Shown one piece after another: positions 1 through 13,931 of a stretch of 13,931 nucleotides of DNA (positions are counted from its first letter, which is position 1; every line of letters starts with the position of its first letter). A program made the position numbers and the translations under genes. Under the pieces are notes generated by a model. It did not search any database, had not been told where the DNA came from, and saw nothing but the letters and a program-made list of their open reading frames with translations. Origin of the DNA: a virus; the IMG/VR virus record IMGVR_UViG_3300010163_000397, positions 1 to 13,931 of that record; one strand, given 5' to 3'.

Positions 1-2
1 TT

Positions 3-137
3 CTGGTGTTCAAATGGTGCGAAGAACAAGTCTCAACCGCGGAAGTGCTGAAACTGTCCATCCGGAAGCCTTTGTTTGGACATCGGCGAGGAAAGACCGT
101 CTTCCTCGTCTTCATGAACTCTAGAATCCCCAACTGA
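3..137 (+). CDS. 3' end of an upstream gene (partial, function unknown)
   Basis: Frame 3 is open from the window edge to TGA 135-137 and translates as ...LVFKWCEEQVSTAEVLKLSIRKPLFGHRRGKTVFLVFMNSRIPN*. It is co-oriented with the next gene and ends 12 nt before it. No motif recognised. Confidence 0.3.
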   Translation: MVFKWCEEQVSTAEVLKLSIRKPLFGHRRGKTVFLVFMNSRIPN

Positions 138-149
138 CGCTTTTTTGAT

Positions 150-650
150 ATGCCACGCAAACCAACATCTTTAATTCCACGGACGCACCGTGAACTGTGC
201 GAAATAGCAGAACGTTGGCTCATTGGCAAATATGGATGCCGTATTGCTATCGCGGAACCAAATTGCATCATCACCACGGAACAACCGGATGCAATCGGAT
301 GGCATGGGCGGGTCAGCGTACTCGTGGAAGCAAAGACAAGCCGTTCTGACTTTTTGGCAGATGCCAAGAAGCCTTTTAGAGCCAACCCTCAAGATGGCAT
401 GGGCATCTACCGTTACTACATTTGCGAGCCTGATGTCATCACGATAGATGACTTGCCGGAGCGTTGGGGGTTACTCCATGTACTGCAAGGCGGCCGAGTG
501 CGCGAGCTTCGAAGAAGTCAACGGTTTGAGGCGGATCGCGCCGAAGAACTAAGTCTCCTGACAGCCTGTCTTGCTATTCATAAACCTCTGAAAATTAGAT
601 CATCTATCAGTAGGAGAGTTTTTCAAATCGGAAAGGAGGATATTGCCTGA
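150..650 (+). CDS. PD-(D/E)XK nuclease-fold protein, MmcB-family-like
   Basis: 166-aa ORF. The motif PDAIGW...SVLVEAKTSRSDFLADAKKPFR...YRYYICEPDVI...LPERWGLLHV fits the D...E-x-K core followed by SRxDF and a C-terminal 'lP..wGLl' block, as I remember it for MmcB-like phage/bacterial nucleases. The stop lies 2 nt before the next start. Confidence 0.55.
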   Translation: MPRKPTSLIPRTHRELCEIAERWLIGKYGCRIAIAEPNCIITTEQPDAIGWHGRVSVLVEAKTSRSDFLADAKKPFRANPQDGMGIYRYYICEPDVITIDDLPERWGLLHVLQGGRVRELRRSQRFEADRAEELSLLTACLAIHKPLKIRSSISRRVFQIGKEDIA

Positions 651-652
651 TT

Positions 653-1804
653 ATGCCTACAAGATTGATCAGAGAAGGTATTCTGACTTCCGAGCGCGTC
701 GCCTCCCTTTCGTGGGAGGCCGAGGTGTTCTACCGACGCCTGATGTCTGTGGCAGACGATTACGGCCTTTATGACGCCAGGACGCCCATTCTCCGTTCTG
801 CGCTGTATCCTCTCCAACTCGACAAGATGAGCGAGTGCAATATTCAACGCTGCCTCTCCGCGTGTGAGGCCGCGGGGCTTATTCTGCTTTATTCTCACAA
901 TGAGAAGCCATACTTGATGATTCTGGGGTTCGACCAGCAGGGGAAGACTATGCCCAAATGGCCTCTTCCGAACGGTTACGAAGTGCTGAAAGTCTCCGAG
1001 AAGAAATACGAATTGAGGAAATTCGTAACAGGTCGTAACGATTCGCCTCAACCCGTTACTTATGCGAATGCGAATGCGGATGCGGATGCGGATGCGGATA
1101 AACAAAAAAATAATGCAGGGGGAAATAACACGGTGGATTGTAGCGAGCCGACCGCCGCTCCTGCACTGCCTGCCTCCCCAGAGGTGGAAGGGCAGTATTC
1201 CGAAAAACGAACAGAAAGGCCGCTCCCTGCCCGTTTTGGCTCCGAGTCGGTAAGTTGTGCCGTCGGAGCGAGAAACAGCCAGCAAGGGGCATCACAGGCT
1301 TTTACAGGGCCATTCCCGGAACGTGAACGGCTCAACGATGTCCGAGGAATGCGTTGCGCCGACAATCACGCGGATTTTGGAGCATCCCCAGATGCGGCCC
1401 GGTTCCTGACAGCTTGCCTTGAAATCAACCCCTCATGGGGGCGGACGCTTCCAACACCGGTTGAGCAGGCCGCCGCGCTTGAGGCGTACCGGTCAGCCAA
1501 GGGCCGCGTGACTCCGCGGGATATGGAGATGTTGAAGGCTTATTACCAATCGAATCTGACTGAAGACAGCCGCCGGAAACCGTTCTGGAGGCCAGACAGC
1601 CGCCGGAGGTTCTGGGAGAACTTCGGAGACGTCATCACTCATGCTGACCGCTGGGCTAAAGAGACGCGCTGGAAGCCGGCATCCGCCCGGAAAAAGCCGG
1701 TTCCAGAAGAACCTCGGCAGCCGGAAGGGCCGGTTGTGGATCTCAAAACAGCCGCCGATGAGTTGAGCGGGTTCAAAACTGAAATGGGGTGGAGCAATGA
1801 TTAA
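653..1804 (+). CDS. Putative phage replication/DNA-binding protein (N-terminal winged-helix-like domain, low-complexity linker, basic C-terminal domain)
   Basis: 383-aa ORF. The N-terminus (ILTSERVASLSWEAEVFYRRLMSVADDYGLYDARTPILRSALYPL...AGLILLYSHNEKPYLMILGFDQQ) resembles a widespread phage replication-module N-terminal domain. The middle is ANANADADADAD followed by a Pro/Ala-rich linker. Function is inferred only from position and this resemblance. Confidence 0.55.
   Translation: MPTRLIREGILTSERVASLSWEAEVFYRRLMSVADDYGLYDARTPILRSALYPLQLDKMSECNIQRCLSACEAAGLILLYSHNEKPYLMILGFDQQGKTMPKWPLPNGYEVLKVSEKKYELRKFVTGRNDSPQPVTYANANADADADADKQKNNAGGNNTVDCSEPTAAPALPASPEVEGQYSEKRTERPLPARFGSESVSCAVGARNSQQGASQAFTGPFPERERLNDVRGMRCADNHADFGASPDAARFLTACLEINPSWGRTLPTPVEQAAALEAYRSAKGRVTPRDMEMLKAYYQSNLTEDSRRKPFWRPDSRRRFWENFGDVITHADRWAKETRWKPASARKKPVPEEPRQPEGPVVDLKTAADELSGFKTEMGWSND
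1064..1099 (+). repeat. Hexanucleotide tandem repeat (GCGAAT)x2(GCGGAT)x4, in frame, encoding ANANADADADAD
   Basis: Read directly: gcgaat gcgaat gcggat gcggat gcggat gcggat, inside CDS 653..1804. Confidence 0.9.
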
Positions 1805-1810
1805 GCGCCC

Positions 1811-1846
1811 CCCCGGAAACTCGTACAAGCCCCGGAAACTCGTACA
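1811..1846. repeat. Two direct copies of CCCCGGAAACTCGTACA (19-bp period)
   Basis: Copies at 1811-1827 and 1830-1846 are identical over 17 nt. They lie just after the stop of CDS 653..1804, in the convergent intergenic region. Confidence 0.85.
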
Positions 1847-1848
1847 GG

Positions 1849-1871
1849 CCCCCGCCCATGCCGGGCGGGGG
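1849..1871. terminator. GC-rich hairpin between convergent genes (possible bidirectional terminator)
   Basis: CCCCCGCCC (1849-1857), loop ATGCC, GGGCGGGGG (1863-1871). This is a perfect 9-bp stem. No clear U-tract on either strand, so terminator function is uncertain. Confidence 0.4.
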
Positions 1872-1885
1872 GGGCAACGGGAAAA

Positions 1886-2488
1886 TCAGCGTGGGAGATT
1901 TTTTGTCGTCCCCCGTTCCATGATGAGCCTCATCAAAAGGCACATGGGTTCCGGAGGGGCGGGGTGGGAATCAAGCCACCTCCAGACTGTCAAATGAGTC
2001 ACGCCGATCACATCAGCGGCCCGGTTCACGGCCGCGGTTTTGCTGTTCAACTTGTGCGAGGTTTTCAAAAAGTCTAAAAATTGAACCAGCGTTTTGACTT
2101 CCGGCCCTCTCTCACCCTCAATGGAGGCCCCATAAGACCGGACGCCATCCCCGTCCCCGGTTTGAGGCGAAAAAATAAAACCATTCTCTTCAAGCTTCAT
2201 CCTTAAGAGCGATTTTAAATCGTCCTGTTTTTTTTCTGAAAGCCACGATGAAAATGAAATATAAAGAGTCACGTCCAAATCATCGTAGCTTTCAACGTCG
2301 TCAACCTCTTCACTCCATTCAGGATCTTGAAAAAGCAACACAACCCCGCCGTCATCAAGGGCGTTAACCTCAACTTCCTCTCCGTCAATGTCATCAGATT
2401 CAATCACAACGTTATCACGCACCAGCTCCGTTTCAAGTTCACGGCTGATGCGTTCCAGTTTAGCTTTAATTTCTTTGGTTACTTTCAT
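1886..2488 (-). CDS. Two-domain protein: highly acidic N-terminal half plus C-terminal helix-turn-helix (Cro/Xre/antitoxin-like) DNA-binding domain
   Basis: 200-aa ORF. The N-terminal half is rich in D/E (ESDDIDGEEVEVNALDDGG...DPEWSEEVDDVESYDDLD). The C-terminus, NSKTAAVNRAADVIGVTHLTVWRWLDSHPAPPEPMCLLMRLIME, has a typical HTH followed by the 'P...LL.li' tail seen in Xre/MqsA-like regulators. It is the second gene of the leftward operon. Confidence 0.7.
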   Translation of the reverse strand: MKVTKEIKAKLERISRELETELVRDNVVIESDDIDGEEVEVNALDDGGVVLLFQDPEWSEEVDDVESYDDLDVTLYISFSSWLSEKKQDDLKSLLRMKLEENGFIFSPQTGDGDGVRSYGASIEGERGPEVKTLVQFLDFLKTSHKLNSKTAAVNRAADVIGVTHLTVWRWLDSHPAPPEPMCLLMRLIMERGTTKNLPR

Positions 2489-2508
2489 TTTTTTGATTGG
2501 TTTGATTT

Positions 2509-2793
2509 TCAGGCTTTAGCAGTTACGAAGCGATTTTCAATGCAGAACCAGGTGGGGAGGGTCAAAAAGCAATCGCCCGCCCAGACTCCATCTTTTAGAA
2601 GTTCAATTTTTTCAACGAGGCTTTTTGGAATCCAATGGTAAGAGGAGCCACCGCAGCTGTAGTCCGTGTCAATCTGGATGGCTTTTTCGGATTCCTTGGA
2701 CACGATGGCGCGCACCTTGGAAAGCTTCCAGCTGGGCTTTATTGAGGAACCGAGTTTAGCTTCATCAATGCTTAATTTGTGGGTGATGATCAT
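2509..2793 (-). CDS. Small hypothetical phage protein (94 aa)
   Basis: ORF with a purine-rich leader (agaaagagaaaaagaaa ATG on the minus strand). It contains the 'KAIQI...HWIPKSLV...LPTWF' pattern that I recall from small phage proteins of unknown function. First gene downstream of the leftward promoter. Confidence 0.65.
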   Translation of the reverse strand: MIITHKLSIDEAKLGSSIKPSWKLSKVRAIVSKESEKAIQIDTDYSCGGSSYHWIPKSLVEKIELLKDGVWAGDCFLTLPTWFCIENRFVTAKA

Positions 2794-2850
2794 TTTCTTT
2801 TTCTCTTTCTATTGTTAATGTTTCCGGGGCTTCCCCCTCTCAACAAAGAC

Positions 2851-2879
2851 AAGATACTATCAAATTGATAGTGCGTCAA
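2851..2879 (-). promoter_or_regulatory. Leftward sigma70-like promoter: -35 TTGACG, 17-nt spacer, -10 TATCTT
   Basis: The minus strand reads agTTGACGcactatcaatttgatagTATCTTg. The -35 is at plus coordinates 2874-2879 and the -10 at 2851-2856. It sits about 50-60 nt upstream of the start of CDS 2509..2793. Confidence 0.5.
2856..2872. promoter_or_regulatory. 17-bp perfect palindrome ACTATCAA-A-TTGATAGT (candidate operator)
   Basis: Read directly. The two 8-bp arms are exact reverse complements around a central A. The palindrome fills the spacer of the leftward promoter. Confidence 0.75.
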
Positions 2880-2948
2880 CTAAAAAACAGATTTTTTTAA
2901 CGCGGAAGAATTTTTTTCAGCCGTCGCAAAAACTGACAAAGCCCGGAA

Positions 2949-2978
2949 TTGACAACGCATTTTTCAGCCGATTAAAAT
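2949..2978 (+). promoter_or_regulatory. Rightward sigma70-like promoter of the late operon: -35 TTGACA, -10 TAAAAT (18-nt spacer) or TTAAAA (17-nt spacer)
   Basis: TTGACA at 2949-2954 and TAAAAT at 2973-2978. The predicted start site is about 2985, only about 3 nt before the AGG at 2988. An 11-bp direct repeat TTTTTCAGCCG occurs at 2913-2923 and at 2960-2970, the second copy lying in the spacer. Confidence 0.45.
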
Positions 2979-2987
2979 TTTTCCAGC

Positions 2988-3500
2988 AGGAAAACGAAGA
3001 AGACAACCACGAAACGAAAGACAGGCAGGCCGAGCATCTATTCCGAAACGCTTGCACAAGAAATTCTAGAACGGCTCGCCTCCGGGGAAACCATGAAGTC
3101 CATCTGTTCTGATTCCAAGATGCCAACTGTTTGGACGGTTTGGTATTGGCGGGAAACCAAGCCGGAGTTTTCAAAACTCATTCAGCGCGCGCGGGAAATC
3201 CAATCAGAATCAATGCTGGACGAATGCACGGCGCTTTCAGATAAGGCCGCGGAAGTCGCTCTTGATGAGAAATGCGGTTCCGCGGCCGTGCAGGCGAAAA
3301 AGATTGCTATTGAAACACGGCTAAAAGTTGCGGCCCGGTTCGCCCCGGAAAAATTCGGAGACAGGGTAAGGCAAGACGTTGCCGGGGTTCCCGGAGCGCC
3401 GCTTGAGCGTAAAATCACGCTTGACCCTGACCAGCTGGCCCAGCTTCAGGAGGACGAAAAAAAAGCGTTGGAGACGATCGCCGGAAAGCTCCAGCGCTAA
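2988..3500 (+). CDS. terS: Terminase small subunit (HTH type); start codon non-canonical or unresolved. Minimal canonical ORF is 3093..3500
   Basis: The frame is open from 2976, after TAA at 2973-2975. The translation is NFSSRKTKKTTTKRKTGRPSIYSETLAQEILERLASGETMKSICSDSKMPTVWTVWYWRETKPEFSKLIQRAREIQSESMLDE...RFAPEKFGDRV. This fits the remembered TerS pattern GRPS.Y..E.a..I...la.G.sl..IC...gmP...TV..W....pEF...y.rARe.qad...K.YGD. The first ATG (3093) lies inside the HTH. No ATG, GTG, TTG or CTG occurs in frame between 2976 and 3092. Start candidates are AGG 2988, AGG 3027 and ATC 3036. Confidence applies to gene identity, not to the start. Confidence 0.8.
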   Translation, partial: RKTKKTTTKRKTGRPSIYSETLAQEILERLASGETMKSICSDSKMPTVWTVWYWRETKPEFSKLIQRAREIQSESMLDECTALSDKAAEVALDEKCGSAAVQAKKIAIETRLKVAARFAPEKFGDRVRQDVAGVPGAPLERKITLDPDQLAQLQEDEKKALETIAGKLQR

Positions 3501-3512
3501 ACCGGAAAGATT

Positions 3513-4883
3513 ATGAGACTCCCGGTCAGTTTTTTTCTTAGGCATGTTTTGGGCCTTGATCCTTATCCGTGGCAAACGGAAGCGATTAAGGCTTTATCGC
3601 TTGGAAAAATAGCTCTGGGAGGAAAAAGCGTTGCTCTTGTCGCTCCCAATGGTTCCGGGAAAACAAGCAATTGCATAGCCCCATCCATCCTCTATTTTCT
3701 GACCATATTCCCGCGCGGACAAGTCGCCGTAACGTCCTCATCTTGGCTTCAAGTCGAAAAACAGCTTTTCCCGGCGTTGCGCCGGTTCATGGACAACCCG
3801 TTTTTTTCAGGCTGGACGTTTAACAAAACAGAAATCAGAACACCGGAAGGGGGCTTCGTGCTGGGTTTTTCGACTGACAACGCCGGACGCGCGGAAGGAT
3901 GGCACCCCAAGATTTCACCAGAAATAGACCCGGTTTTTTATGTTCTCGACGAAGCAAAAACAATCCCGGATTCCATCTTCACCGCCGTTTCCAGGTGCAC
4001 TCTTTACCACGCCTTCATCACGTCATCACCTGGGGCGGATTCCGGAACCTTTTACGATTGCTTTCACAAAAATTCGCCCTATTACTACAAAATCCGCGTC
4101 AAATATGAGGATTGCCCTCATATTGAACAAAACGACCCCGGGAAGGCTGAACGCCTTAAAAAAGAATATGGCGAAACATCTTCATTTTATCGTTCAGCAA
4201 TCCTGGGCGAATTCACAGACCTTGAAGGCCAATCCGTGATTTCCCGCCGCGCCGTCATGGAGCTGATCAATAACCCGCCTCCGTTTTTGGACACGGGCGA
4301 AGTGTGCGGCGGCTTTGACTTCGCGGCGGGCGGCGATGAAAATGTTTTTGCCGCCGGAAAAGGCAACCGGTTTTTCATTGCCGACCATTGGTCGGATCCG
4401 GACACCGTAGGAGCCCGCGGACGGTTCCGGCGAAAAGCCTCTGAACTTGGGATCCCGGCGGATCATATTTTCGCAGACGGCGATGGGCTGGGCCTCCCCA
4501 TCATTGACGACTTCCGCGCCGAAGGCTTCCCGGTTCATTCATACCGGGGCGGGTTCCCCGCCAGCGAACAAAAAGCGTTTGTCAATTTACGAGCCCAGGC
4601 ATGGCGGGCGCTGGCCCGCGCCATTGAAGAAAAAGAACTCATTTTGGACGTGGATGAAGAGACGATTGAACAGCTGGTCGCCCCGCGCCTCCAAACAGAC
4701 GCCATAGGGCGTGTGAAGATTGAATCCAAGGAAGATATGATGAAGCGGGGCGTTCGTTCGCCTGACCGTGCGGACGCTCTCGTCATGGCGTGGCATGCGC
4801 GGCGAAATTGTGGACTGGTTCAAAATCTGGGTTGGTGGTATGACAGACGGCCCGCCAAAAAACGCGCCATCGGAAGATATTAG
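3513..4883 (+). CDS. terL: Terminase large subunit
   Basis: 456 aa. Walker A-like VAPNGSGKTS and Walker B-like FYVLDEAK. A C-terminal nuclease-like region carries acidic motifs (GFDFAAGGDENVF, ADGDGLG, SPDRADAL). It lies immediately after TerS with a 12-nt gap. Confidence 0.92.
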   Translation: MRLPVSFFLRHVLGLDPYPWQTEAIKALSLGKIALGGKSVALVAPNGSGKTSNCIAPSILYFLTIFPRGQVAVTSSSWLQVEKQLFPALRRFMDNPFFSGWTFNKTEIRTPEGGFVLGFSTDNAGRAEGWHPKISPEIDPVFYVLDEAKTIPDSIFTAVSRCTLYHAFITSSPGADSGTFYDCFHKNSPYYYKIRVKYEDCPHIEQNDPGKAERLKKEYGETSSFYRSAILGEFTDLEGQSVISRRAVMELINNPPPFLDTGEVCGGFDFAAGGDENVFAAGKGNRFFIADHWSDPDTVGARGRFRRKASELGIPADHIFADGDGLGLPIIDDFRAEGFPVHSYRGGFPASEQKAFVNLRAQAWRALARAIEEKELILDVDEETIEQLVAPRLQTDAIGRVKIESKEDMMKRGVRSPDRADALVMAWHARRNCGLVQNLGWWYDRRPAKKRAIGRY

Positions 4884-4886
4884 TGC

Positions 4887-4915
4887 TTTACAAAATATCA
4901 ACATATCTATATATA
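4887..4915 (+). promoter_or_regulatory. Sigma70-like promoter directly upstream of the tRNA: -35 TTTACA, 17-nt spacer, -10 TATATA
   Basis: TTTACA at 4887-4892 and TATATA at 4910-4915, giving a predicted start about 4922, 13 nt before the tRNA 5' end. The region is very AT-rich, so a chance match is possible. Confidence 0.4.
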
Positions 4916-4934
4916 TTGATACGTAAATGTAAAT

Positions 4935-5008
4935 CGCAGGGTGGTGAAACGCTATCACGCGGGGTTCCTGTCCCCGAATAGGAGGTTCAATTCCTCCCCC
5001 TGCAACCA
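4935..5008 (+). tRNA. tRNA with anticodon CCU (Arg by anticodon) and initiator-tRNA-like architecture; CCA encoded
   Basis: Hand-folded cloverleaf of 74 nt:
- Acceptor stem CGCAGGG/CCCUGCA, with C1(4935)xA72(5004) unpaired and pairs 2-7 Watson-Crick.
- U8 and G9.
- D stem GUGA/UCAC, with a 7-nt D loop AACGCUA that lacks the GG dinucleotide.
- Anticodon stem CGGGG/CCCCG and loop UUCCUGU. U33 is present, the anticodon is C34 C35 U36 at 4967-4969, and position 37 is G.
- Variable region AAUA.
- T stem GGAGG/CCUCC and T loop UUCAAUU.
- Discriminator A73, then CCA at 5006-5008. Confidence 0.85.
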
Positions 5009-5024
5009 AACTTTCTTTAAACTC

Positions 5025-6389
5025 AGGTTCAACGCCATCCGAAACATCATCAACGCTCCCAAGCTGGTTGTTCAACAGGAAACCAGAATCAAAGAGCTTG
5101 AAACGGATTTAGCGCGGAAGACTTTGACGAATCAAAGCCGGATTCCTGGGCGTCCTCAATGGTTTGAATATTGGGATCCGTTGCAGGGCGCGGACATGGA
5201 AACGCTGGTGGAGGCGCGAAATGAAGCCCGGCGCGGAGCCTACGCGCGCCAGATGCTTATCTGGGACGAAATTATTTATTCAGACGGAATGCTTGGAATG
5301 CTCTTTTCTCGTCTCATCGAGAGCGTTTCAATGCAGGGGTGGAAGATTGATTCAGCGAATGACAGCCCGGAGGCTCAGCGTCAAAAGACTGCTCTTGAGG
5401 AATTTTACAATTCCATCACAGGACTTCAAAAGGCTTTTGGTCAGCTCTCCACGGCATTATTTTACGGCTTCTCTCACCTGCAATTCATTGAAGACTCCTG
5501 GGGTCGAAGATTTGAGTTTATTCCGCAGCGCTATTGGGTGCGCCCCGGTGAACTCAACGAGTGGCAATTCAATCCACAATGCCACATCGGCGTTGATTCC
5601 GGAGAAAGTGTTGAAGATGAAACGCTGGTTATTCTTGAACACAAGAACCCCATTCTTTTTCCGGCATCAAGGGCGTCTTTTGAACGGAATCATGCAAAAA
5701 TGATTTGGGGCAATCACATGGATCGTTACGGATCCTCGCCCGCCATCATCACGGCTCCGGAAAACGCCAGCGCCGCGGTGATGGACGCTCTTGAAAAAGC
5801 CTGTGAAGAGCTCAAATCCGGCGGATCTATTGTGCTGCCTCCCGGATGCACCGCCGAACCGCTCAAGGCGTCCAACATCAGCGAAAACTATTTCATTTCC
5901 AGAATTAATATGGCCGATAAAGACCAAGTGCGCTTTGTGATGGCGGGCACCCTGACTGTTTTGAATGAGTCAGGTTCCGGAACGCTGGCGGGGTCGGCTC
6001 ATACCGACAGCTGGAATTCAGTAGTTTCCGCGGTGTGCTCCAAAGTTGCCGAAGCGTTCAACGCAGTCATCAACCCGTTGATTCTTGGGGACGTTGAATA
6101 TCTGGCCCGCCTCAATATCACTTTTGACACCGTCCAGACGCCGCTCCAAAAGGCCGAAGAGATCGCCGCCCTCGCTGATGGAGGGGTGCGGTTGGACAAG
6201 GCCGAAATTGAAGAAAAGATCGGAATGTCTGTTGAGGATGCGGACGCTCCGGAGCCGATGACGTCAGCAGTCAACCGTGAACCCGACGAACCCGGCATCC
6301 CGCCTGATGCTTTTGAACAGCTCCAACAAATCATCTACAACGGTTTAATCAAAGGATTCAGCGATGATCAGTTCAAAACAAATCAATAA
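5025..6389 (+). CDS. Portal protein, Mu gp29-like (DUF935-like); start unresolved
   Basis: The block DPLQGADMETLVEARNEARRGAYARQMLIWDEIIYSDGMLGMLFSRLIESVSMQGWKI resembles the N-terminal core of Mu-type portals (hPsrGltP..l..il..ae.Gd...q..l..dm.ekD.hl....kR..av..l.W.i). Size and position after TerL also fit. The ORF-track GTG start at 4941 lies inside the tRNA and is rejected. In-frame start candidates are AGG 5025, CTG 5064, TTG 5124 and ATG 5196. Confidence 0.85.
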   Translation, partial: RFNAIRNIINAPKLVVQQETRIKELETDLARKTLTNQSRIPGRPQWFEYWDPLQGADMETLVEARNEARRGAYARQMLIWDEIIYSDGMLGMLFSRLIESVSMQGWKIDSANDSPEAQRQKTALEEFYNSITGLQKAFGQLSTALFYGFSHLQFIEDSWGRRFEFIPQRYWVRPGELNEWQFNPQCHIGVDSGESVEDETLVILEHKNPILFPASRASFERNHAKMIWGNHMDRYGSSPAIITAPENASAAVMDALEKACEELKSGGSIVLPPGCTAEPLKASNISENYFISRINMADKDQVRFVMAGTLTVLNESGSGTLAGSAHTDSWNSVVSAVCSKVAEAFNAVINPLILGDVEYLARLNITFDTVQTPLQKAEEIAALADGGVRLDKAEIEEKIGMSVEDADAPEPMTSAVNREPDEPGIPPDAFEQLQQIIYNGLIKGFSDDQFKTNQ

Positions 6390-7479
6390 CCTTGATTCTG
6401 CTCCCGGGAATGGATGGTTCCACATCGAAAAAAGTGGGGATCATGAAGTTGACTACGGCGAAGGCCCATCAATTTTAAGGATTGATGAAGAGGCCATTGA
6501 AGCGATGGTTGCTGAATTCAATGCACGCACCTTTGACGGCCCAGGAATGTTGATTGATGGGGATCATTTAAGCCATGACCTATCACGAGACACCCGCGCC
6601 CTTGGGTGGCTGAAAAGATTGGACACCTACCAAGACCCTTCCGGATCGGTGGAGCTTTACGGATTCATCGAATGGACGCCGCGCGGCCGGAAGATGCTTG
6701 AGGATAAAGAATATACCCAATCATCAACAGAATATAACGAAGGACTTAAATTCAAAGAAGGCATCTATAAACCTTCAAAACTGACCGGCTTTGCCCTGAC
6801 CAACCGCCCCAGAATCAAGGGGAAGCGTCCGTTGGTAAATAGACAGACTTCCCCCACCTCCACAGGGGCCGGGGATGAAAACAAAAGCCCCGCAGGAGGG
6901 GAAACAACCCAGAAAAAAGACATGGAAAACGAAGAAAGAGAATATCCGTCCACGGAGATGGATAAGGCCCAGCGGGCCCTGTTTGACTCGTTGCTCGATA
7001 AATTGGATGTCGAATTTGACGGCACCGATGACATGAGCCGGGCCATCTTGGGACGTCTGGATGAACTTCTTGCGCTGGAAAAGCGTGAGAAAGACCACGT
7101 GAATTCCGAAGTTGAAGACGCCGTCAGCACGTATGAAAATGCGTTGGACGAGGAAGAACGGGAGGAGTTTACGGAAGAACGCCGGGAAGAGCTGAAAAAT
7201 TCTCTTCGGGAAAGCCCCGCTGCTCTGAGCGCTTTTGTACGGGCCTTGAACCGTCAGGCCCCTCCTAAGCCTCAGGACACTCCGGAACCTAAAGAGCTTC
7301 CAAAAAGGAAGCCTCTTAACCGCCGGGTTACTCAAAATCCGCCGAATCCGTTCATGAAAAAGGAATCCATTGACGGGTTCACCAACCGCGTTAATGAACT
7401 CATGAAGAACGGAATGAAGCGCTACGATGCTTATCAAAAAGCAACCGAGGAAGGCTTCATTGTCGTCAACGAACGCTAA
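6364..7479 (+). CDS. Mu gpI-like prohead protease / scaffold fusion
   Basis: 371 aa. GWFHIEKSGDH..., LIDGDHLSH, ALGWLKRL, FIEWTPRGRKMLEDKEY..SSTEY and GFALTNRPRIKG match the remembered Mu-like prophage I protein pattern. The C-terminal half is charged and coiled-coil-like, as expected for a scaffold. It overlaps the portal end by 26 nt. Confidence 0.8.
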   Translation: MISSKQINNLDSAPGNGWFHIEKSGDHEVDYGEGPSILRIDEEAIEAMVAEFNARTFDGPGMLIDGDHLSHDLSRDTRALGWLKRLDTYQDPSGSVELYGFIEWTPRGRKMLEDKEYTQSSTEYNEGLKFKEGIYKPSKLTGFALTNRPRIKGKRPLVNRQTSPTSTGAGDENKSPAGGETTQKKDMENEEREYPSTEMDKAQRALFDSLLDKLDVEFDGTDDMSRAILGRLDELLALEKREKDHVNSEVEDAVSTYENALDEEEREEFTEERREELKNSLRESPAALSAFVRALNRQAPPKPQDTPEPKELPKRKPLNRRVTQNPPNPFMKKESIDGFTNRVNELMKNGMKRYDAYQKATEEGFIVVNER

Positions 7480-7503
7480 TTATTAACTATTAACTAAAAA
7501 ACA

Positions 7504-7926
7504 ATGCCATCCATCAATATCACTCAAACGGATGCCGAAGTCTACTTCAACGCCCCGGAAGGCGCTGATTTATCGGCCTTGGAAGGTTCCGTGGTTTCTT
7601 TGACCGGGAATCCCGCTATTCCTGAATTAGTCGGCAATCCTCTGACGGCCCTTCCGACTCAAAGTCAGCTTCTTGGGCTTGTCACTCAAATTCAGCCGGA
7701 TAGGGGCACATGCTGCGCCGTTTTGGTAGGCATGTACGCCGGACTGGTCAAGGCGTCTCTCTCTGAAACGCCCGGCACAATAAGCGTTGGAACTCCCCTG
7801 ACTATTACAGCAAATGGGGCGTGGAAGGCCGCCGCCAGCGGTGACACCGTATACGCTCGCGCGATTCACAATCTATGGGAGCCCGGCAAAGTTGAAATCG
7901 GGTTTGTGGCGCCTTATCAGGCTTAA
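7504..7926 (+). CDS. Small head protein, DUF2190-like (decoration/cement candidate)
   Basis: 140 aa, positioned between protease/scaffold and major capsid. It is a Gly/Val-rich beta-type sequence (GLVKASLSETPGTISVGTPLTITANGAWKAAASGDTVYARA), typical of that family as I recall it. Confidence 0.5.
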   Translation: MPSINITQTDAEVYFNAPEGADLSALEGSVVSLTGNPAIPELVGNPLTALPTQSQLLGLVTQIQPDRGTCCAVLVGMYAGLVKASLSETPGTISVGTPLTITANGAWKAAASGDTVYARAIHNLWEPGKVEIGFVAPYQA

Positions 7927-7960
7927 TATCAATTCTAATTTTTAGAAAGACAATCAATCA

Positions 7961-8884
7961 ATGGCTAATCTATTTTATTCGGCGGTTCAGTTTACGGATG
8001 TACTAACATCATTTTCCGTTGGCGCGGGAAATACGGAAAGAGATTCTATGGTGAACCGGATCGCCCCGCTCGTCCCTGTGTACGATGTTTCATTTCAATA
8101 TATGGTGTGGGACACACCGGCCGCTTTTACGGTCGAACCCATCCAGGTGGCGCCCGGTGAACCTCCCCGGCAAACCTCAATGCTCGGAAAAACTGAAACG
8201 GACACTTTACAGGGATATGCTCTCACTGATCCGATTCCAGATATTTTGTTGGGGACGAATAAAGAAAAGGCTCAAGCGATTTTGTTATCTCATGCCAAAT
8301 TCCTTGAATCTAAATTCGTGACGTCTTACGAATATCAGCGCGCCAAACTTATTGAAAGTCAGGTTCCAGCGGCTTCTGGTTATGGAGATTGGGACAATCC
8401 TGAAAAAGATCCTATCGTTGATTTGAATAAAGCTCTTCGGACCATCAATGCAACGGCAGGGAAAATGCCAAATACAATTGTATTTGGTATGAGCGCCTGG
8501 TCCAGGCTTCGCGAAAATCCAAATGCTAAAAAACTCGTATCGTTTAACAGCGTTGGGGCGTTTAATGAGGCTCTTTTGCAGATTGCTTTGCTCAATCCTG
8601 TTGATGAAATTTACCTCAATAAAATGCCGTTTAGAGATTCATCAGGACAAGGCAAAACAATCATGGATGATGACGTCTATATTCTTTATAAAGAAGATTC
8701 TCCGACGCAATTTGACGCATCGGCAATTAAGACGTTCGCTCTTAATGGTCAATTTAATCGTGAAGTAACGACGGAATATTTCCCGACCAACAAGGAAACC
8801 AAGGTGACCAACCGGGTTTATTCGCTGACGAAGTTGACCAATCCCGGAGCAATCATCCGCATCAATACGGCGTCAGCCGCTTAA
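7961..8884 (+). CDS. Major capsid protein (HK97-fold, lambda-E-like by pattern)
   Basis: 307 aa. Position follows scaffold and decoration genes. The motif block WDNPEKDPIVDLNKALRTINATAGKMPNTIVFGMSAWSRLRENPNAKKLV resembles the 'dP..dl....i....G..pn.lv.g..aw..l..n' block of E-like capsid proteins. Confidence 0.7.
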   Translation: MANLFYSAVQFTDVLTSFSVGAGNTERDSMVNRIAPLVPVYDVSFQYMVWDTPAAFTVEPIQVAPGEPPRQTSMLGKTETDTLQGYALTDPIPDILLGTNKEKAQAILLSHAKFLESKFVTSYEYQRAKLIESQVPAASGYGDWDNPEKDPIVDLNKALRTINATAGKMPNTIVFGMSAWSRLRENPNAKKLVSFNSVGAFNEALLQIALLNPVDEIYLNKMPFRDSSGQGKTIMDDDVYILYKEDSPTQFDASAIKTFALNGQFNREVTTEYFPTNKETKVTNRVYSLTKLTNPGAIIRINTASAA

Positions 8885-8904
8885 CCCCTGAAACCGCCTC
8901 CATT

Positions 8905-9381
8905 ATGACAGCGTTTCCCGCATGGTCTCCAATTACCACGGATGAAGCCGACCGGCTTCTTGGCCTCAATACCGCGGAAAGAGATTCCCTTGTAAGGGCC
9001 GGGGAGCAGAGAAGCCTTGATTATCATGGCGTCATGATGGAGGCGGTGAATGATGTTTGTGTAGCCATCCGCGGGGCGTTGGCTAACAACCTCGCCCTGC
9101 GTCAATCCCTTCAAAACAGCGGGACTCATGATATTCCGCAAAGCATGAGGGCGTTAGCGTGGCCTTTAATTATCCGGCAACTCTACATCCGCTATCAAAT
9201 CAACCTGACCGAAACGCGCCAGAAGGCCGCGGAATCCGCAGATGAAATGTTGAGCCTTTACGCGCGCGGGGAAAGACTCCCTGAAAGCGTGGATGGCTCC
9301 GCTCCCGCGGATCCGGCCTACATGATGCCCCGCTACACGCGCCGCCCATGGTTCAATCCAATCAGAAGCACGTACCGATGA
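8905..9381 (+). CDS. Head-tail connector/adaptor candidate (DUF1320 / Mu gp36-like pattern)
   Basis: 158 aa, immediately after the capsid gene. The pattern is weak: ITTDEADRLLGL..., EAVNDVCVAIRGAL, IPQSMRALAWPLIIRQLY, AESADEMLSLYARGERLP. Confidence 0.45.
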   Translation: MTAFPAWSPITTDEADRLLGLNTAERDSLVRAGEQRSLDYHGVMMEAVNDVCVAIRGALANNLALRQSLQNSGTHDIPQSMRALAWPLIIRQLYIRYQINLTETRQKAAESADEMLSLYARGERLPESVDGSAPADPAYMMPRYTRRPWFNPIRSTYR

Positions 9382-10514
9382 TAACCGCAGCCCAAAGGGA
9401 GATGATCGCCAATGACTACGCCGAACGCGCGTTTTTCGTGTCCGGTGTGGAACCCGGCGTCATTTTGTCGGATTTTGAGGACAAGGCCCGTAAGGTGACT
9501 TCCGGGGCGTTGAGCTACGAGGAAGCCCAGCGGGCCATCCGGGAAATGTTGAGGAATCAGGGCTATGAACCGCCAGTTTTAGGTGAAGGAGGCATTCAGG
9601 ATTTGTCCTCCTGGGTCAGGATTCAGGTAGTCATTGAAACGAATGCCGCCATGGCCCACGGATTCCGGAACTGGTACAGCTGGACACAGGATGAAGACAC
9701 GGCCGCCTTTAAATTTTACCGCTCCCAGGGACGGGAAGACCCGCGTTATTGGGCTGAACGTTGGAACAGCGCTCGTGTAGGTTTGGAAGGAGAAGCTACG
9801 GAGGCGGTATCTTCCGGCTTCATCCGCGGTGATGTGGTGGGGTATGCTTTGGCCAATTCCGACATATGGATTAGGCTTTCTCGGTTCGGCACCCCCTACC
9901 CTCCATTTGATTACCTTTCCGGAATGAACATCGCCCCCATAGGTGTTGAAGAGGCGCGTTCAGCCGGTCTTGATGTTTCCCGCGTCAAACCTGCTCCATC
10001 AAGCTTCAACTCGACGCTGGAAAGCAACGCCAAGGGAGTTACTAAAAAGAATGCCGATAAAATCCGCCGGATCCTGAAAGACGCCGTGCGGATGGAAAAA
10101 CAGGAGGACGGCAACACCACGTTCATCTACACTGACCCAAACGGCACCCGGCCTTATTCTGATGCCGGGCTTGCTGATTTGCTGAAAGGTGATTTTCCGG
10201 AAGAAATCCCCTTGAGGCAGGCGGCGGCCTTTCGGCTTGGTATGGCAGGCGGCGCGGTTGTTGGCACCCTTTCCGCTCTCTATCTGGAACGTCTGATTGA
10301 CAGGTTGTTTTCTGAAAAAGAGGGCGTCTGGTATGCGCGCCCCGCTGACGTGGCGTCCGCGCCGTCTCTGACCTTCATTCCCGTTTCCAAGGTTGAGGAA
10401 GGGGATTTTACCTACCCCCTTCAATCCGGGCACGTCAAAAAGGTGGAAGACATTGCCGGAGCGCTTGAAGTGGAAATATCAACCCCCTATGTGTTAGCGT
10501 CAAAATGGGTATAG
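9378..10514 (+). CDS. Virion morphogenesis / minor head protein candidate (Mu F / SPP1 gp7-like N-terminal pattern)
   Basis: ATG 9378 forms an ATGA overlap with the upstream stop (9379-9381). The ORF-track start at 9348 is also possible. AFFVSGVEPGVILSDFEDKARKVTSGALSYEEAQRAIREMLRNQGY...RIQVVIETNAAMAHGFRNW loosely matches the Mu F-like head morphogenesis pattern. The C-terminal 200 aa are not recognised. Confidence 0.45.
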   Translation: MITAAQREMIANDYAERAFFVSGVEPGVILSDFEDKARKVTSGALSYEEAQRAIREMLRNQGYEPPVLGEGGIQDLSSWVRIQVVIETNAAMAHGFRNWYSWTQDEDTAAFKFYRSQGREDPRYWAERWNSARVGLEGEATEAVSSGFIRGDVVGYALANSDIWIRLSRFGTPYPPFDYLSGMNIAPIGVEEARSAGLDVSRVKPAPSSFNSTLESNAKGVTKKNADKIRRILKDAVRMEKQEDGNTTFIYTDPNGTRPYSDAGLADLLKGDFPEEIPLRQAAAFRLGMAGGAVVGTLSALYLERLIDRLFSEKEGVWYARPADVASAPSLTFIPVSKVEEGDFTYPLQSGHVKKVEDIAGALEVEISTPYVLASKWV

Positions 10515-11167
10515 CCGTTCACATTGATCAATCCGAGATTGACCGCGCGTTTGCCGATCTTTCGCCTTCAACGGAACAGCACAAGGTGGGGATTCGCAAG
10601 GCTGGGGTGGCTTTAAGCCTGCTGATTCAGAAAACCCTTAGGCAGCAGGGCAAGGATTACTATGACGGCGCGGCAGATGCCACCAGCATGGAAGAATCAT
10701 CAGAGGGTGTCACCGTCTCCATCGCCTGGCGCGGCATCGGCATTCATTGGGTGGGAACGCAGCGTTATCTTGGCGGCCCGCTCCGTCCCACGGGGCGCAC
10801 GTCTGAAATCACCGGACGGCCTATTAAAAATCTTGCTATACCGACAGCAAACGCCCCCCGCGGGCATGGTGATTTCAGGAGCATCTACAGCGCCGGATTC
10901 CGTCAGGATGATTTGGAGTTCATCCCCTCCAAAGGAGGAGGGAGGGGCGGCAATGTTACCGGCGTTCTCGTCCTCAAAACGGCCCAATCCTCCACCGGGA
11001 AAAAAACGGCGCGGAAGCTTTTCAAGAAGGGCACGAAAACGGGGGATGTCCTCTATGTACTTTGCCGTGAAGTTACAATCCCTCCAACCCCGGGGATTTT
11101 GCCTGCCATTGATGAAATGGCAAAGCACGCGGCCGAAAACTATCTTTCAAACATCGGAAAATCATGA
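10505..11167 (+). CDS. Structural (neck / tail-completion) protein, family not recognised
   Basis: 220-aa ORF, translationally coupled on both sides (10-nt overlap upstream, ATGA overlap downstream), in the head-tail joining position. Confidence 0.5.
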   Translation: MGIAVHIDQSEIDRAFADLSPSTEQHKVGIRKAGVALSLLIQKTLRQQGKDYYDGAADATSMEESSEGVTVSIAWRGIGIHWVGTQRYLGGPLRPTGRTSEITGRPIKNLAIPTANAPRGHGDFRSIYSAGFRQDDLEFIPSKGGGRGGNVTGVLVLKTAQSSTGKKTARKLFKKGTKTGDVLYVLCREVTIPPTPGILPAIDEMAKHAAENYLSNIGKS

Positions 11168-11694
11168 ACCCGTCTATTGATCAGACCTTGAGCCGCCGCA
11201 TCATTGAGCGGCTGAAAAACATTCAGGAATTGGGATGCCACGTGTTTGAACAGCCCTTTGACCCCCAGTTCGCCGCCAACGACATCATCATGTCGTCTAT
11301 GGGCAACAATGGGGTTGTGCTGGTTTCTCCGGGAGATGCGGAAGAATACCAGGACGGGCACGGGCAAACGGCGGTTCCAACTATGTGGAGGCAGTTTTTT
11401 ATCATTGCGGCCATCTACCACAACGCGGCCCTGTTCCCCGCGGAATGCCTGACGCCGGATTTTTATTTAAGAAAGATTGGCGATGAAATAGAACTGGCGC
11501 TTTGGGACTGGAACCCGTTTTACTTTGCCGCCCCTGCCATGATGAAGCCCAAGATTAAAGGCCGTTTTTCATCTTCCGCTATTATCGATGGCGAAAAGCG
11601 GCAAATGAACGTTTTAACCGTGGACTACCGCGTTCCGGTTAATATCAACATTAAATCACACCCTAAATTTAATGAGCAGAACACCAACAATTAA
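11164..11694 (+). CDS. Structural protein, family not recognised
   Basis: 176-aa ORF. ATGA overlap with the upstream gene at 11164-11167. Confidence 0.5.
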   Translation: MNPSIDQTLSRRIIERLKNIQELGCHVFEQPFDPQFAANDIIMSSMGNNGVVLVSPGDAEEYQDGHGQTAVPTMWRQFFIIAAIYHNAALFPAECLTPDFYLRKIGDEIELALWDWNPFYFAAPAMMKPKIKGRFSSSAIIDGEKRQMNVLTVDYRVPVNINIKSHPKFNEQNTNN

Positions 11695-11947
11695 AAAGAA
11701 AGCGCCGGAAACGGTGAAAGCGCCGGAAACGGTGAAAGCGCCGGAAACGGTGAAAGCGCCGGAAACGGTGAAAGCGCCGGAAACGGTGAAAGCGCCGGAA
11801 ACGGTTTCCGTCCGCGTCATCCGAACCCGCGCTGAACTGGATGGCGGGCTTGTTTTGAGCCTTGCCATGAAAACCGACACGCCCAATATTCCGGCGCCCA
11901 TTGCCGAAGCGTTAAAAACCCTGAACCTGATTGAAATCCATGACTAA
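11672..11947 (+). CDS. Small protein with (KAPETV)x6 tandem repeat
   Basis: 91-aa ORF that overlaps both neighbours. Its N-terminal third is encoded by six perfect 18-bp repeats. Confidence 0.55.
   Translation: MSRTPTIKKKAPETVKAPETVKAPETVKAPETVKAPETVKAPETVSVRVIRTRAELDGGLVLSLAMKTDTPNIPAPIAEALKTLNLIEIHD
11698..11805 (+). repeat. Perfect 18-bp tandem repeat x6 (GAAAGCGCCGGAAACGGT)
   Basis: Counted directly. There are six identical units at 11698, 11716, 11734, 11752, 11770 and 11788, in frame within CDS 11672..11947. Confidence 0.95.
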
Positions 11948-12134
11948 ACCAAACACTATTGCAGAACCTGAAAAAAAGACGGAAAATGCCGCCGCCATTG
12001 ATACGAAAATTCGCATCATGTCAAAAGAGCTTTTTATTGGAAAATCTACGTTCTTGAAGGGCGCGGAAATTCATGTTAAAAAAGAGCTTGCCGATAAACT
12101 GGAAAAAGACGGCAAGGCAATCATTATTTATTAA
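11940..12134 (+). CDS. Small hypothetical protein (64 aa from ATG 11940; ORF-track TTG 11931)
   Basis: ATG 11940 overlaps the upstream stop (11945-11947). Translation MTKPNTIAEPEKK...KELADKLEKDGKAIIIY. No family recognised. Confidence 0.5.
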   Translation: MTKPNTIAEPEKKTENAAAIDTKIRIMSKELFIGKSTFLKGAEIHVKKELADKLEKDGKAIIIY

Positions 12135-12156
12135 CCATCTAACTTTTTTAAGCATC

Positions 12157-12813
12157 AGGGCAACCACATACGAACCTACTTTCATCAATCGAAACGTAAC
12201 GCCCCAGATTACCGGCGTGCTTGCCATTTTTCTTCCGGACGGCATCAAAGTAACCGAAGACGGGGGGACGTCTTACATCACCGGCCCCAACCAGTTTCCG
12301 ACGCCTCCGGACATGCCCCCGGTAGATCCTACCGCCGGGCCGGAAGCTCCCTGGGTCAGTTTTGGCCTTCTCGGAGCCTTCCAATCCGTCGCTACACAGG
12401 TTGAGGGCGAAGTCACCCGCTTTTACGGCGGGGCGCTTGGTTATCGTGTGCAGCGAAAGAACACGACGACCGGGAAGCGCATGACCTTCACAACGCCGGA
12501 TATGTCCCCGGAATCCTTCCAGCTTTCCTTTGCGCTGGGGGCACCCCCGTCCAATGGCGAAGAGTCAACCACAATCGGCCATGGCGGAGACAATAAAATT
12601 GAAGGCTATCTCCGTTTCTGGTATCAAGACGACGTTGGCACTATTTATTTAGCCGGTACGGCACACGGAGCGTTGCGGCTATTGCAAGATCCGGAACACA
12701 CCACGGCGATTGCGTCGCGTCAGTTTGAATTTGAAATGGACTACCGCGGGAAATACCAGTTCACCCCGTCCAATGTTCAGGATGTGGTGACTAGCACATC
12801 CCCCGGATCCTGA
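12157..12813 (+). CDS. Putative major tail (tube) protein; start unresolved
   Basis: The frame is continuous with ORF-track 12073..12813. ATG 12073 would overlap the upstream gene by 62 nt. Other in-frame candidates are AGG 12157 (22 nt after the upstream stop, giving [14 protein letters not shown]...), GTG 12217 and ATG 12313. The tail assignment rests only on position, on beta-rich composition, and on the strong hairpin that follows. Confidence 0.5.
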
Positions 12814-12825
12814 TTGTTTAACCAT

Positions 12826-12864
12826 GGGGGAGCGACTCGCTCCCCCGCATCCCCTCCTTTTTTT
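12826..12864 (+). terminator. 9-bp perfect GC hairpin followed 11 nt later by T7 (possible partial terminator or RNA stabiliser)
   Basis: GGGGGAGCG act CGCTCCCCC at 12826-12846, then gcatcccctcc, then TTTTTTT at 12858-12864. The U-tract is not adjacent to the stem, so this is not a textbook intrinsic terminator. Confidence 0.4.
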
Positions 12865-12865
12865 C

Positions 12866-13931
12866 AGGCAACAAGCGGGCCAGTATAATATCAAGACGGT
12901 TACGGGGCTTAACCAGTCTCTCGTGATTCGGCTGTTGGATTTTCAGGGCGACCCCGTAGATATGAGCGGCATCACCCTCCGCGGTGCGGTGCGCCTCAAG
13001 AGCGGCGTTTCAGAGTTCGGCTTTTCCCGTGATGTTGAAGGCAACAGCGTGATTTCATGGGAATCCGTTCCCGCCGGAATGTGGGCCTACGATCTTTTCA
13101 TGGACGACGGGAAAGAAGAAAAGCCGCTGCTTTTCGGAACCTTCATTTCATCCGGGCGGGTGACGCCGGATTTGCCGGATGAACAGCAGGCCGTTGCCGG
13201 GGCTGTGTTAGTCCAGCTTCCGGAAAAAACCGGATGCGTGCAAATCGTTCTTAACAACGCGTCAAGTGCTGCCTGGTATGCCGAACAGGCTAAAAAATAC
13301 GCCGAAAATTTCGGCTTGTCCGTGGGAAAAGTCACCACCGGAGAGCCCGGCACGCCAGCGGCCGCGGAAGCCGTCCGGGGAGAGGAACCCGGTTCATACG
13401 TCCTTTCATTTACGATCCCTCAAGGCCCGGAAGGTCTGCAAGGCCCGGTTGGCCCCCAAGGAGAGCCCGGCCCTCAAGGAGTTCCGGGCCCAACAGGCCC
13501 GCAGGGGGCAACAGGGGAACAAGGCCCGCAAGGGCCCAGGGGGGAACAGGGTGAACGCGGCCCGGAAGGCCCTCAGGGGCCGCAGGGCGAAACAGGCCCC
13601 CAGGGCCCGGCGGGGCCTGTTGGGCCTCAAGGCCCGCAGGGAGAAAAAGGGGATGCGGGCGATGTAAATGCGGATTCATCCTACATTTGGATTCAACCAC
13701 AGACTTTTACCGGAGCCATCAACGCCAACGGGGGCATCAACATTCCTCTTGCCGTGGGGGCGCCAACAGAAACGGCGGCGGTCAATCGCCTGTACGCTGC
13801 CGGGCTGGCTGCCGTGACGGAGGCGTTTTCTCCGCAAAGTTTCCTTTCAAGCTTCACCCTGTACGGCGGGAGCGTCGCCGTAGATCAGACGGTTCCCGGC
13901 CAGATGTGGAAACTCCGCAAGACGTCCGCAG
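12866..13931 (+). CDS. Collagen-like tail fibre protein (3' partial, runs off the window); start unresolved
   Basis: It is absent from the ORF track because it has no stop in the window. I translated the frame containing 13424 by hand and it is open from 12812 to 13931.
- The N-terminal region ([37 protein letters not shown]...[31 protein letters not shown]) looks like the Ig-like N-terminal domain common in phage fibre/baseplate proteins.
- 27 Gly-X-Y triplets follow.
- The C-terminus reads [27 protein letters not shown]...
- Start candidates are ATG 12824 (inside the hairpin), AGG 12866 and ATG 12962. Confidence 0.85.
13424..13666 (+). repeat. Collagen-like Gly-X-Y repeat region (27 triplets)
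   Basis: [81 protein letters not shown], read directly in frame. Confidence 0.95.

Follow-up and report, generated by a model that had tools for sequence, protein, structure and literature searches.

To our knowledge, all described natural initiator tRNAs carry the anticodon CAU, and the start codons are AUG or near-cognates read by it. A C1×A72 mismatch on top of G2:C71 and C3:G70 marks a tRNA for formylation and keeps it off EF-Tu. Initiators given a new anticodon in the laboratory reportedly include the amber initiator tRNA-CUA and tRNAini(AAC). Phage suppressor tRNAs accompany the stop-codon recoding of late genes in recoded crAss-like and Lak phages. The G:C pairs of the anticodon stem license P-site selection on the ribosome (PMC5389676). 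Tests of Escherichia coli initiator tRNAs with all 64 anticodons demonstrated that initiation factor 3 (IF3) accepts Watson–Crick codon–anticodon pairs of any sequence (PMC10158994). Here we consider a tRNA gene at positions 4935–5008 of a viral DNA of 13,931 nucleotides (IMG/VR record IMGVR_UViG_3300010163_000397, positions 1 to 13,931), the whole of which is called the window below. A first-pass annotation had proposed that this is a natural initiator tRNA retargeted to AGG; comparative genomics strongly supports the proposal and points to the portal gene, situated directly downstream, as its target. We consider it probable that the gene encodes a phage initiator-type tRNA that reads AGG as the start codon of head and packaging genes. 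The complementary AGG occupies the inferred start of one to three genes in more than 100 genomes compared.

The tRNA gene

The gene at 4935–5008 of the forward strand is a genuine tRNA gene, with the anticodon CCU, an initiator-type acceptor end and an encoded CCA. ARAGORN finds it as the sole tRNA in the window and types it as tRNA-Arg(CCT). Its score with the Rfam tRNA model is 51.6 bits, the gathering score being 29, and the only non-standard pair flagged by the model is 1:72. The cloverleaf is backed by nine compensatory stem pairs across 17 distinct homologues.

Both the reading of the sequence and the Rfam alignment confirm the proposed register, with C1 at 4935 mismatched to A72 at 5004, on top of G2:C71 and C3:G70. 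The acceptor stem is CGCAGGG/CCCUGCA, A4:U69 being the next pair, and the 3' end continues with A73 at 5005 and the encoded CCA at 5006–5008. In E. coli metZ (NC_000913.3) the corresponding sequences are CGCGGGG/CCCCGCA-A-CCA, and hence the acceptor arms are indeed one compensated pair, 4:69, away from those of tRNA-fMet. The anticodon arm is CGGGG-UUCCUGU-CCCCG, in which C27–G31 (4960–4964) pair with C39–G43 (4972–4976); here G29, G30 and G31 (4962–4964, forward strand) face C41, C40 and C39 (4972–4974), so that the pairs 29:41, 30:40 and 31:39 are all G:C, as had been read. The anticodon (C34 C35 U36, 4967–4969, forward strand), followed by G37, is CCU rather than CAU according to both ARAGORN and the sequence itself. 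The D arm is GUGA-AACGCUA-UCAC, with a loop of 7 nt and the elongator-type pair U11:A24 that had been listed as a caveat; a variable loop of 4 nt follows, and the T arm is GGAGG-UUCAAUU-CCUCC. Another caveat, the lack of G18G19 in the D loop, holds for the window tRNA, which has G18 and C19 (AACGCUA), but not for most relatives, which have AACGGUA with G18G19 intact; hence the missing GG is a peculiarity of the window genome alone.

The portal gene

The portal protein gene (Mu-like portal, PF06074; phrog_113) occupies 5025–6389 of the forward strand, as supported by PHROGs and by the ratio of nonsynonymous to synonymous polymorphism (pN/pS). Its inferred start codon is AGG at 5025–5027, separated from the 3' end of the tRNA by a pyrimidine-rich 16-nt spacer (5009–5024, forward strand) with no match to the Shine–Dalgarno sequence. 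The reading frame extends back through the tRNA gene. The sole canonical in-frame starts in the window are GTG codons within the tRNA, TTG at codon 34 and ATG at 5198 (codon 58). In the alignment with the nearest GenBank phage, Akkermansia phage DTMo-2021a (77% DNA identity), conservation at the protein level starts exactly at the AGG, 16 nt past the tRNA.

The set of relatives comprised 107 related contigs from IMG/VR, public metagenomes and assemblies. Of these, 105 have AGG at the portal start. The remaining two have ATG (L046, where the tRNA is nevertheless present) and TTG (L047, which lacks the tRNA). The spacer between the tRNA and the AGG varies in relatives from 15 to 26 nt and also in sequence, and sets no fixed frame relative to the tRNA. 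At 67 of the 105 AGG loci there is no ATG, GTG or TTG from the upstream in-frame stop to the AGG, and at four loci this stop is only four codons away. The next canonical start downstream is not conserved; its codon offset differs among genomes, being 33, 54, 57 or 76. Codons 2–32 have 11, 5 and 26 variable sites at codon positions 1, 2 and 3, respectively, and pN/pS over this stretch is 0.11–0.14; the low ratio together with the third-position variation indicates that the stretch is translated. Judged by these alignments, purifying selection on the portal gene sets in right after the AGG.

The large terminase and major head protein genes

The N-terminus of every gene in the window was compared with those of the relatives, and two further genes show the same feature. 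The large terminase gene (phrog_2; 3513–4883, forward strand) starts with ATG in the window, and relatives have AGG one codon upstream. The AGG is present in 95 of 97 relatives, invariably three codons ahead of the conserved [L/I]PVSFF motif. At none of the 95 loci is a canonical start present in the interval from the upstream stop to the AGG, and in 78 relatives an in-frame stop precedes the AGG by three codons. The ATG of the window and of relative L048 is one codon downstream of the AGG position, and that of L047 is two codons upstream of it.

At 78 of the 95 loci (for example, 11390–11405 in L001) the small terminase stop shares the frame of the large terminase AGG and precedes it by only 6 nt. 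This arrangement of the junction suggests re-initiation by terminating ribosomes. Read-through from the small to the large terminase was rejected as a general explanation, since the frame is the same in 78 loci and different in 17.

The major head protein gene (phrog_1005; 7961–8884, forward strand) likewise has an ATG start in the window. The identical codon is AGG in 101 of 102 relatives, with nearly identical flanking DNA, and the sole ATG is that of the tRNA-less L047. An in-frame stop is situated 6–10 codons upstream at all 101 AGG loci, with no canonical start in between, and the next canonical start is 19–95 codons downstream of the AGG.

The remaining head genes start with ATG everywhere. 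Among the other genes of the window, none beyond these three has a long conserved stretch ahead of the first canonical start, and a scan of the whole L001 genome for AGG starts was too noisy to yield any additional gene. By this comparison, the window phage has an AGG start for the portal gene only and most relatives have it for three genes, and at these genes AGG is substituted only by start codons.

The AGG is preceded by C in the large terminase and portal genes, but by A in the gene for the major head protein. Quadruplet pairing of G37 with this base is unsupported: the base is C, C and A by gene and does not covary with A37.

Co-occurrence of the tRNA and the AGG starts

In all relatives with available upstream sequence the tRNA precedes the portal AGG by 15–26 nt, with the exception of three truncated elements considered below. 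The portal protein of L047 has 59% identity, its 9-kb locus contains no tRNA, and TTG stands at the exact homologous codon of the portal gene; no other relative has canonical starts at each of the three genes. Canonical starts despite the presence of the tRNA are seen at the portal gene of L046, at the other two genes (large terminase and major head protein) of the window, and at the large terminase gene of L048. Across the genomes compared, AGG starts go together with the tRNA.

Conservation in the tRNA family

The alignment of the tRNA family contains 17 distinct sequences, including the L048 lineage (portal 64% identity). Pair 1:72 is C×A in all 17, while pairs 4:69, 6:67 and 7:66 covary. 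A Watson–Crick 1:72 pair, which is a mark of elongators binding EF-Tu and which the first-pass annotation had envisaged for homologues of an ordinary tRNA, is seen in none of them. C3:G70 is likewise invariant, and G2:C71 is present in 16 sequences, the remaining one having G:U. In the anticodon stem, G30:C40 is found in 17 of 17, pair 29:41 is G:C in 15 and A:U in two, and pair 31:39 is G:C in 15 and U:G in two. Thus, of the two initiator features expected to be conserved among homologues, the 1×72 mismatch is fixed, but the GGG/CCC run is not whole. G30:C40 is the essential pair in the E. coli initiator, and natural bacterial initiators vary at the flanking pairs 29:41 and 31:39 (PMC5389676), that is, at the identical two pairs on which the variation in the family falls. 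C1×A72, C3:G70 and G30:C40 never change in an alignment in which nine further pairs show covariation. Hence selection keeps initiator features, namely, the initiator-type acceptor end and G30:C40.

The mismatch sets the family apart from most phage tRNAs. In the fetched phage loci a 1×72 mismatch was observed in 1 of 81 tRNAs of other isotypes, 11 of 22 CAU tRNAs and all 15 distinct CCU sequences. The anticodon CCU is invariant across the family, and no member has the CAU of the initiator class. Position 37 is G in the window and most relatives and A or U in minor lineages, so the A37 of elongators reading ANN codons, which bear N6-threonylcarbamoyladenosine (t6A), is mostly absent. Position 20 is an invariant U in the D loop AACG(G/C)UA; hence A20, a determinant for arginyl-tRNA synthetase (ArgRS), is absent throughout.

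Two loop positions distinguish the window tRNA from its relatives. It has C19 where relatives have G19. The T loop (columns 52–58) is mostly UCCAACU in relatives, with C55, and the window tRNA keeps the canonical UUCAAUU; tRNAs nearly always carry U (pseudouridine) at position 55.

A distant relative

A more distant locus is represented by a single contig, L286 (Logan SRR26188688_50636), in which a tRNA at 2035–2110 (46.7 bits with the Rfam tRNA model) lies between the large terminase and portal genes. Its acceptor stem is identical to that of the window tRNA, including C1×A72, and its body is far nearer to E. coli tRNA-fMet, with the D stem GAGC/GCUC, A11:U24 and the variable loop AGGAC. The anticodon stem, CCGGG/CCCGG, has three G:C pairs, and the anticodon loop is 8 nt long, AUCCCUUA, giving CCC or CCCU. 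In the large terminase and head protein frames, N-terminal conservation again sets in before the first canonical start, and the in-frame codons at the expected starts are GGU, GGG (portal) and GGG in place of AGG; with the preceding base they read AGGU, AGGG and UGGG. This suggests that the anticodon and the start codon have changed together and that the tRNA is initiator-derived. Two DNA pattern scans and one protein search found no relatives of L286.

Arginine codons and other possible signals

Conservation of AGG could in principle reflect conservation of arginine. However, all ten internal invariant Arg positions in the same N-terminal regions use two to five synonymous codons, whereas the start position is AGG in 43/43, 47/48 and 32/32 unique sequences of the three genes, the sole alternative being ATG. 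Hence the constraint is on the nucleotides and not on the residue.

AGG had been considered rare as a sense codon. This is true of the large terminase gene, which has two internal AGG codons in the window, but AGG is not especially rare overall, with about 8–10 per 1000 codons, or 11–14% of Arg codons. Its share among Arg codons is 8–11% in the tRNA-bearing L046, 7% in the tRNA-less L047 and about 14% in the window, the latter figure including a probably spurious AGG-rich open reading frame at 13266–13667 that inflates a naive count. This frame, with 8 AGG per 133 codons, overlaps a longer one (from 12791 to the window end) and is probably not a gene. The statement that there is no obvious need for codon supply was borne out, as AGG sense codons are not enriched relative to L047; a codon-supply role for the tRNA was rejected on the same grounds.

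The phage genes here, including the portal gene with its leader, generally lack Shine–Dalgarno sequences. AGG as a Shine–Dalgarno-like signal was also rejected, since no start codon follows within 4–12 nt and coding conservation begins with the very next codon.

Other phage tRNAs

Many phage CAU tRNAs from other environments (L050–L210) have a 1×72 mismatch and A73-CCA, and are putative phage initiators. A scan for the D arm plus AACCA yielded mostly CAU tRNAs with 1×72 mismatches. Descent from an initiator via the common D arm was considered and dropped, since a control scan with the D arm alone also found tRNAs for Gln, Lys, Asn and Trp; once this arm is masked, the family resembles other isotypes as closely as it does CAU tRNAs. 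Phage Met, Gln, Lys, Asn and Trp tRNAs have the D arm UGGUGAAACGGUAUCAC in common.

In the unrelated phage L173 (609–680, reverse strand) a tRNA with an fMet-like acceptor stem (U1×C72, G2:C71, C3:G70, G4:C69) carries CCU. It was rejected as a second CCU lineage, as the near-identical L182 and L193 carry CAU and ATG is found downstream in all three; its CCU is probably a one-off mutation or a sequencing error.

Proposed mechanism and alternative explanations

The comparisons are consistent with the following scheme. The tRNA would be transcribed from an upstream promoter-like element as a co-transcript with the portal gene and excised by the normal tRNA-processing enzymes. The host ArgRS would then be the most probable charging enzyme, with arginine as the amino acid, since C35 and U36 favour this enzyme, and the first residue would thus probably be Arg and not Met. 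By analogy with E. coli, C1×A72 with G2:C71 and C3:G70 would ensure acceptance by the formyltransferase and initiation factor 2 (IF2) and avoidance of EF-Tu, and the G:C-rich anticodon stem with G30:C40 would pass the P-site inspection by IF3 and 16S rRNA. Finally, the anticodon would form Watson–Crick pairs with the start AGG, whose placement comes from the genome comparison. As a consequence, synthesis of head-assembly and packaging proteins would depend on the phage tRNA, and their start codon would be private and inefficient in an uninfected cell. We favour the view that the tRNA is a translational gate on the head-assembly and packaging genes, with the TTGACA-N17-TATATG element upstream of it as the controlled step. 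A wider version is that these genes form a private-start-codon regulon, in which an initiator-derived tRNA provides the sole efficient start for three genes, virion assembly is gated at initiation and the tRNA/start pairing evolves; individual genes do switch between AGG and ATG starts across relatives, and we regard this version as slightly less likely than not.

Several observations weigh against initiation by this tRNA. The case for it is wholly comparative. With one tRNA-less relative, the correlation between the tRNA and the AGG starts amounts to a single independent contrast plus three reversions within the family. Three elements (L233 and L272, at about 2440–2500, and L282) have AGG at the portal and head protein genes, but of the tRNA just the final 12 nt, CCCCTGCAACCA, are left; the DNA upstream is unrelated and palindrome-containing, and lacks a large terminase gene. 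They may be decayed prophages or elements, a true counter-example, or helper-dependent elements, and could be satellites relying on the tRNA of a helper phage. In the tRNA itself, the elongator-type U11:A24 is present in all 17 sequences of the main family in place of A11:U24, G37 and U32/U38 depart from the initiator anticodon loop, and the run of three G:C pairs is incompletely conserved, only G30:C40 being invariant. The D arm, occurring also in Gln, Lys, Asn and Trp tRNAs, is no proof of initiator descent, and the reading of L286 comes from one contig that is ambiguous between triplet and quadruplet decoding. Charging by ArgRS would have to proceed without the A20 determinant, and formylation with Arg attached is not favoured by what E. 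coli shows for Lys, a residue of similar charge.

An alternative that accommodates some of these points is an ordinary elongator tRNA-Arg(CCU) serving a rare codon, with AGG read weakly as a near-cognate by the host tRNA-fMet and the adjacency of the tRNA and the portal gene being coincidental. Phage tRNA-Arg(CCU) genes are common, AGG is one position away from AUG, the typing by ARAGORN and the U:A pair at 11:24 fit an elongator, and three elements have AGG starts and no intact tRNA. However, C1×A72 is invariant amid covariation and nearly absent from other phage elongators, neither A20 nor a fixed A37 is present, AGG sense codons are not enriched compared to the tRNA-less relative, and this relative has no AGG starts. 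Further, IF3 rejects non-Watson–Crick pairs at codon position 2 (PMC10158994), and hence reading of AGG by a CAU anticodon would be very inefficient for an abundant capsid protein. On balance, we find this explanation improbable.

Even less probable is an action of the tRNA in cis, as a processing signal that generates the portal mRNA's 5' end, a stabilising structure, or an element similar to transfer-messenger RNA (tmRNA) or to internal ribosome entry sites (IRES) that places the ribosome on the AGG with no free aminoacyl-tRNA involved. The constant position of the tRNA 15–26 nt upstream of the portal AGG, apparently in one transcript, and the leader without a Shine–Dalgarno sequence would agree with it, but the spacer varies in length and sequence, the anticodon complements the start codon at every base, and the encoded CCA and the intact covarying cloverleaf point to a chargeable tRNA. 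Moreover, the large terminase AGG is about 1.5 kb upstream and the head protein AGG about 3 kb downstream, with no adjoining tRNA, so that a diffusible product is needed. The last possibility is that the genes start at downstream canonical codons, the AGG and the stretch around it being under another constraint, such as a Shine–Dalgarno-like signal or an RNA element. Gene callers and RefSeq do place the starts downstream or within the tRNA gene, but these canonical starts differ among close relatives (portal codon 33, 57 or 76; head protein 19–95), no start codon is found 4–12 nt past the AGG, and the stretch following it has third-position variation and low pN/pS and can be aligned with the N-terminal ends of the proteins that start with ATG in the window and in L047. 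We give this last possibility hardly any credence, and retain initiation at AGG by the phage tRNA as the preferred explanation.

Genomic context and host

PHROGs assigns the genes around the tRNA to the small terminase (3093), large terminase (3513), portal (5025), head maturation protease (6364) and major head protein (7961). Upstream of the tRNA, at 4887–4917 of the forward strand, there is a promoter-like element, TTTACA, a spacer and TATATA/TATATT, which may function as a promoter; the promoter scan of the window made no call at this element. In the relatives, compared over positions −75 to −1, TTGACA-N17-TATATG/TATGTG is kept about 17 nt before tRNA position 1, and an inverted repeat CATATC...GATATG flanks the −10-like box. 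This element could be a regulated promoter/operator of the transcript containing the tRNA and the portal gene.

The circular 32.8-kb plasmid pJ30893 (NZ_AP021899.1, our L421) of the cultured Akkermansia muciniphila JCM 30893 is the same element, with the system at 3025–3123, and may be a phage-plasmid. In its RefSeq annotation the portal coding sequence starts at a CTG inside the tRNA, and the large terminase and head protein genes are truncated. A prophage copy of the element is found in a metagenome-assembled genome of A. muciniphila. The genome also contains an array of clustered regularly interspaced short palindromic repeats (CRISPR) at about 6071–6140 of the reverse strand of L220 (CANQLV010000011.1), with the repeat GTTTCAATCCACGCACTCGTGAGAGTGCGAC and a spacer identical to tRNA positions 8–42. 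Thus Akkermansia targets the phage tRNA gene, and the host is confirmed. Across 185,579 species representatives, this tRNA type was found only as the Akkermansia prophage copy and the CRISPR spacer, with no chromosomal tRNA of the kind.

Significance

Neither a natural non-CAU initiator tRNA nor AGG starts in Akkermansia phages were found in the literature searched, most subscription journals being outside its range; the non-AUG initiators that it describes are engineered. If the proposed function is true, this would be the first natural exception, an initiator-type tRNA making a sense codon a start codon, and a natural counterpart of the orthogonal initiation systems of synthetic biology. It would also add a new layer of phage gene control, in which translation of late genes is locked to a phage tRNA. 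It would explain why three core genes of common human-gut Akkermansia phages and phage-plasmids are mis-started by gene callers and in RefSeq, and it offers a general search route, namely, non-CAU tRNAs with a 1×72 mismatch near genes lacking a canonical start. The system can be tested in the cultured A. muciniphila JCM 30893, which carries pJ30893.

Comparison with known systems

The window tRNA is 66% identical to E. coli metZ and 56% identical to argW. With bacterial tRNA-fMet it shares C1×A72, G2:C71, C3:G70 and A73-CCA, the G:C pairs at 29:41, 30:40 and 31:39, and, according to the comparison, the association with start codons. It differs from tRNA-fMet in having CCU instead of CAU, U11:A24 instead of A11:U24, G37 instead of A37, U32/U38 at the loop ends, a 4-nt variable loop and a 7-nt D loop; most relatives also have C55. 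Moreover, it is encoded by a phage, and its amino acid is probably Arg, not Met.

The anticodon CCU with the ArgRS determinants C35 and U36 and the 4-nt variable loop are shared with E. coli argW and phage tRNA-Arg(CCU), the latter being also carried by phages. However, argW has G1:C72, A20 and A37, whereas the window tRNA has C1×A72, U20 and G37, and, unlike an elongator tRNA-Arg(CCU), shows no sign of a codon-supply role.

Phage CAU tRNAs in IMG/VR resemble the window tRNA in the 1×72 mismatch (C×A, A×A or G×A), A73-CCA and the D arm GUGAAACGGUAUCAC, and the one in L065 even has the acceptor stem CGCAGG of the window tRNA. On the other hand, phage tRNAs of this class keep the CAU anticodon and occur in other phage types.

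Like the engineered anticodon mutants, the family tRNA would combine an initiator body with a new anticodon and initiate at the complementary non-AUG codon. Unlike them, it is natural, is conserved in over 100 independent contigs from gut metagenomes, and is linked to particular phage genes. Finally, as with the suppressor tRNAs of recoded phages, a phage tRNA would alter the meaning of one codon, and structural or late genes would then depend on it. The suppressor systems act at termination and elongation, on stops inside genes, whereas the family tRNA would act at initiation, turning a sense codon into a start.

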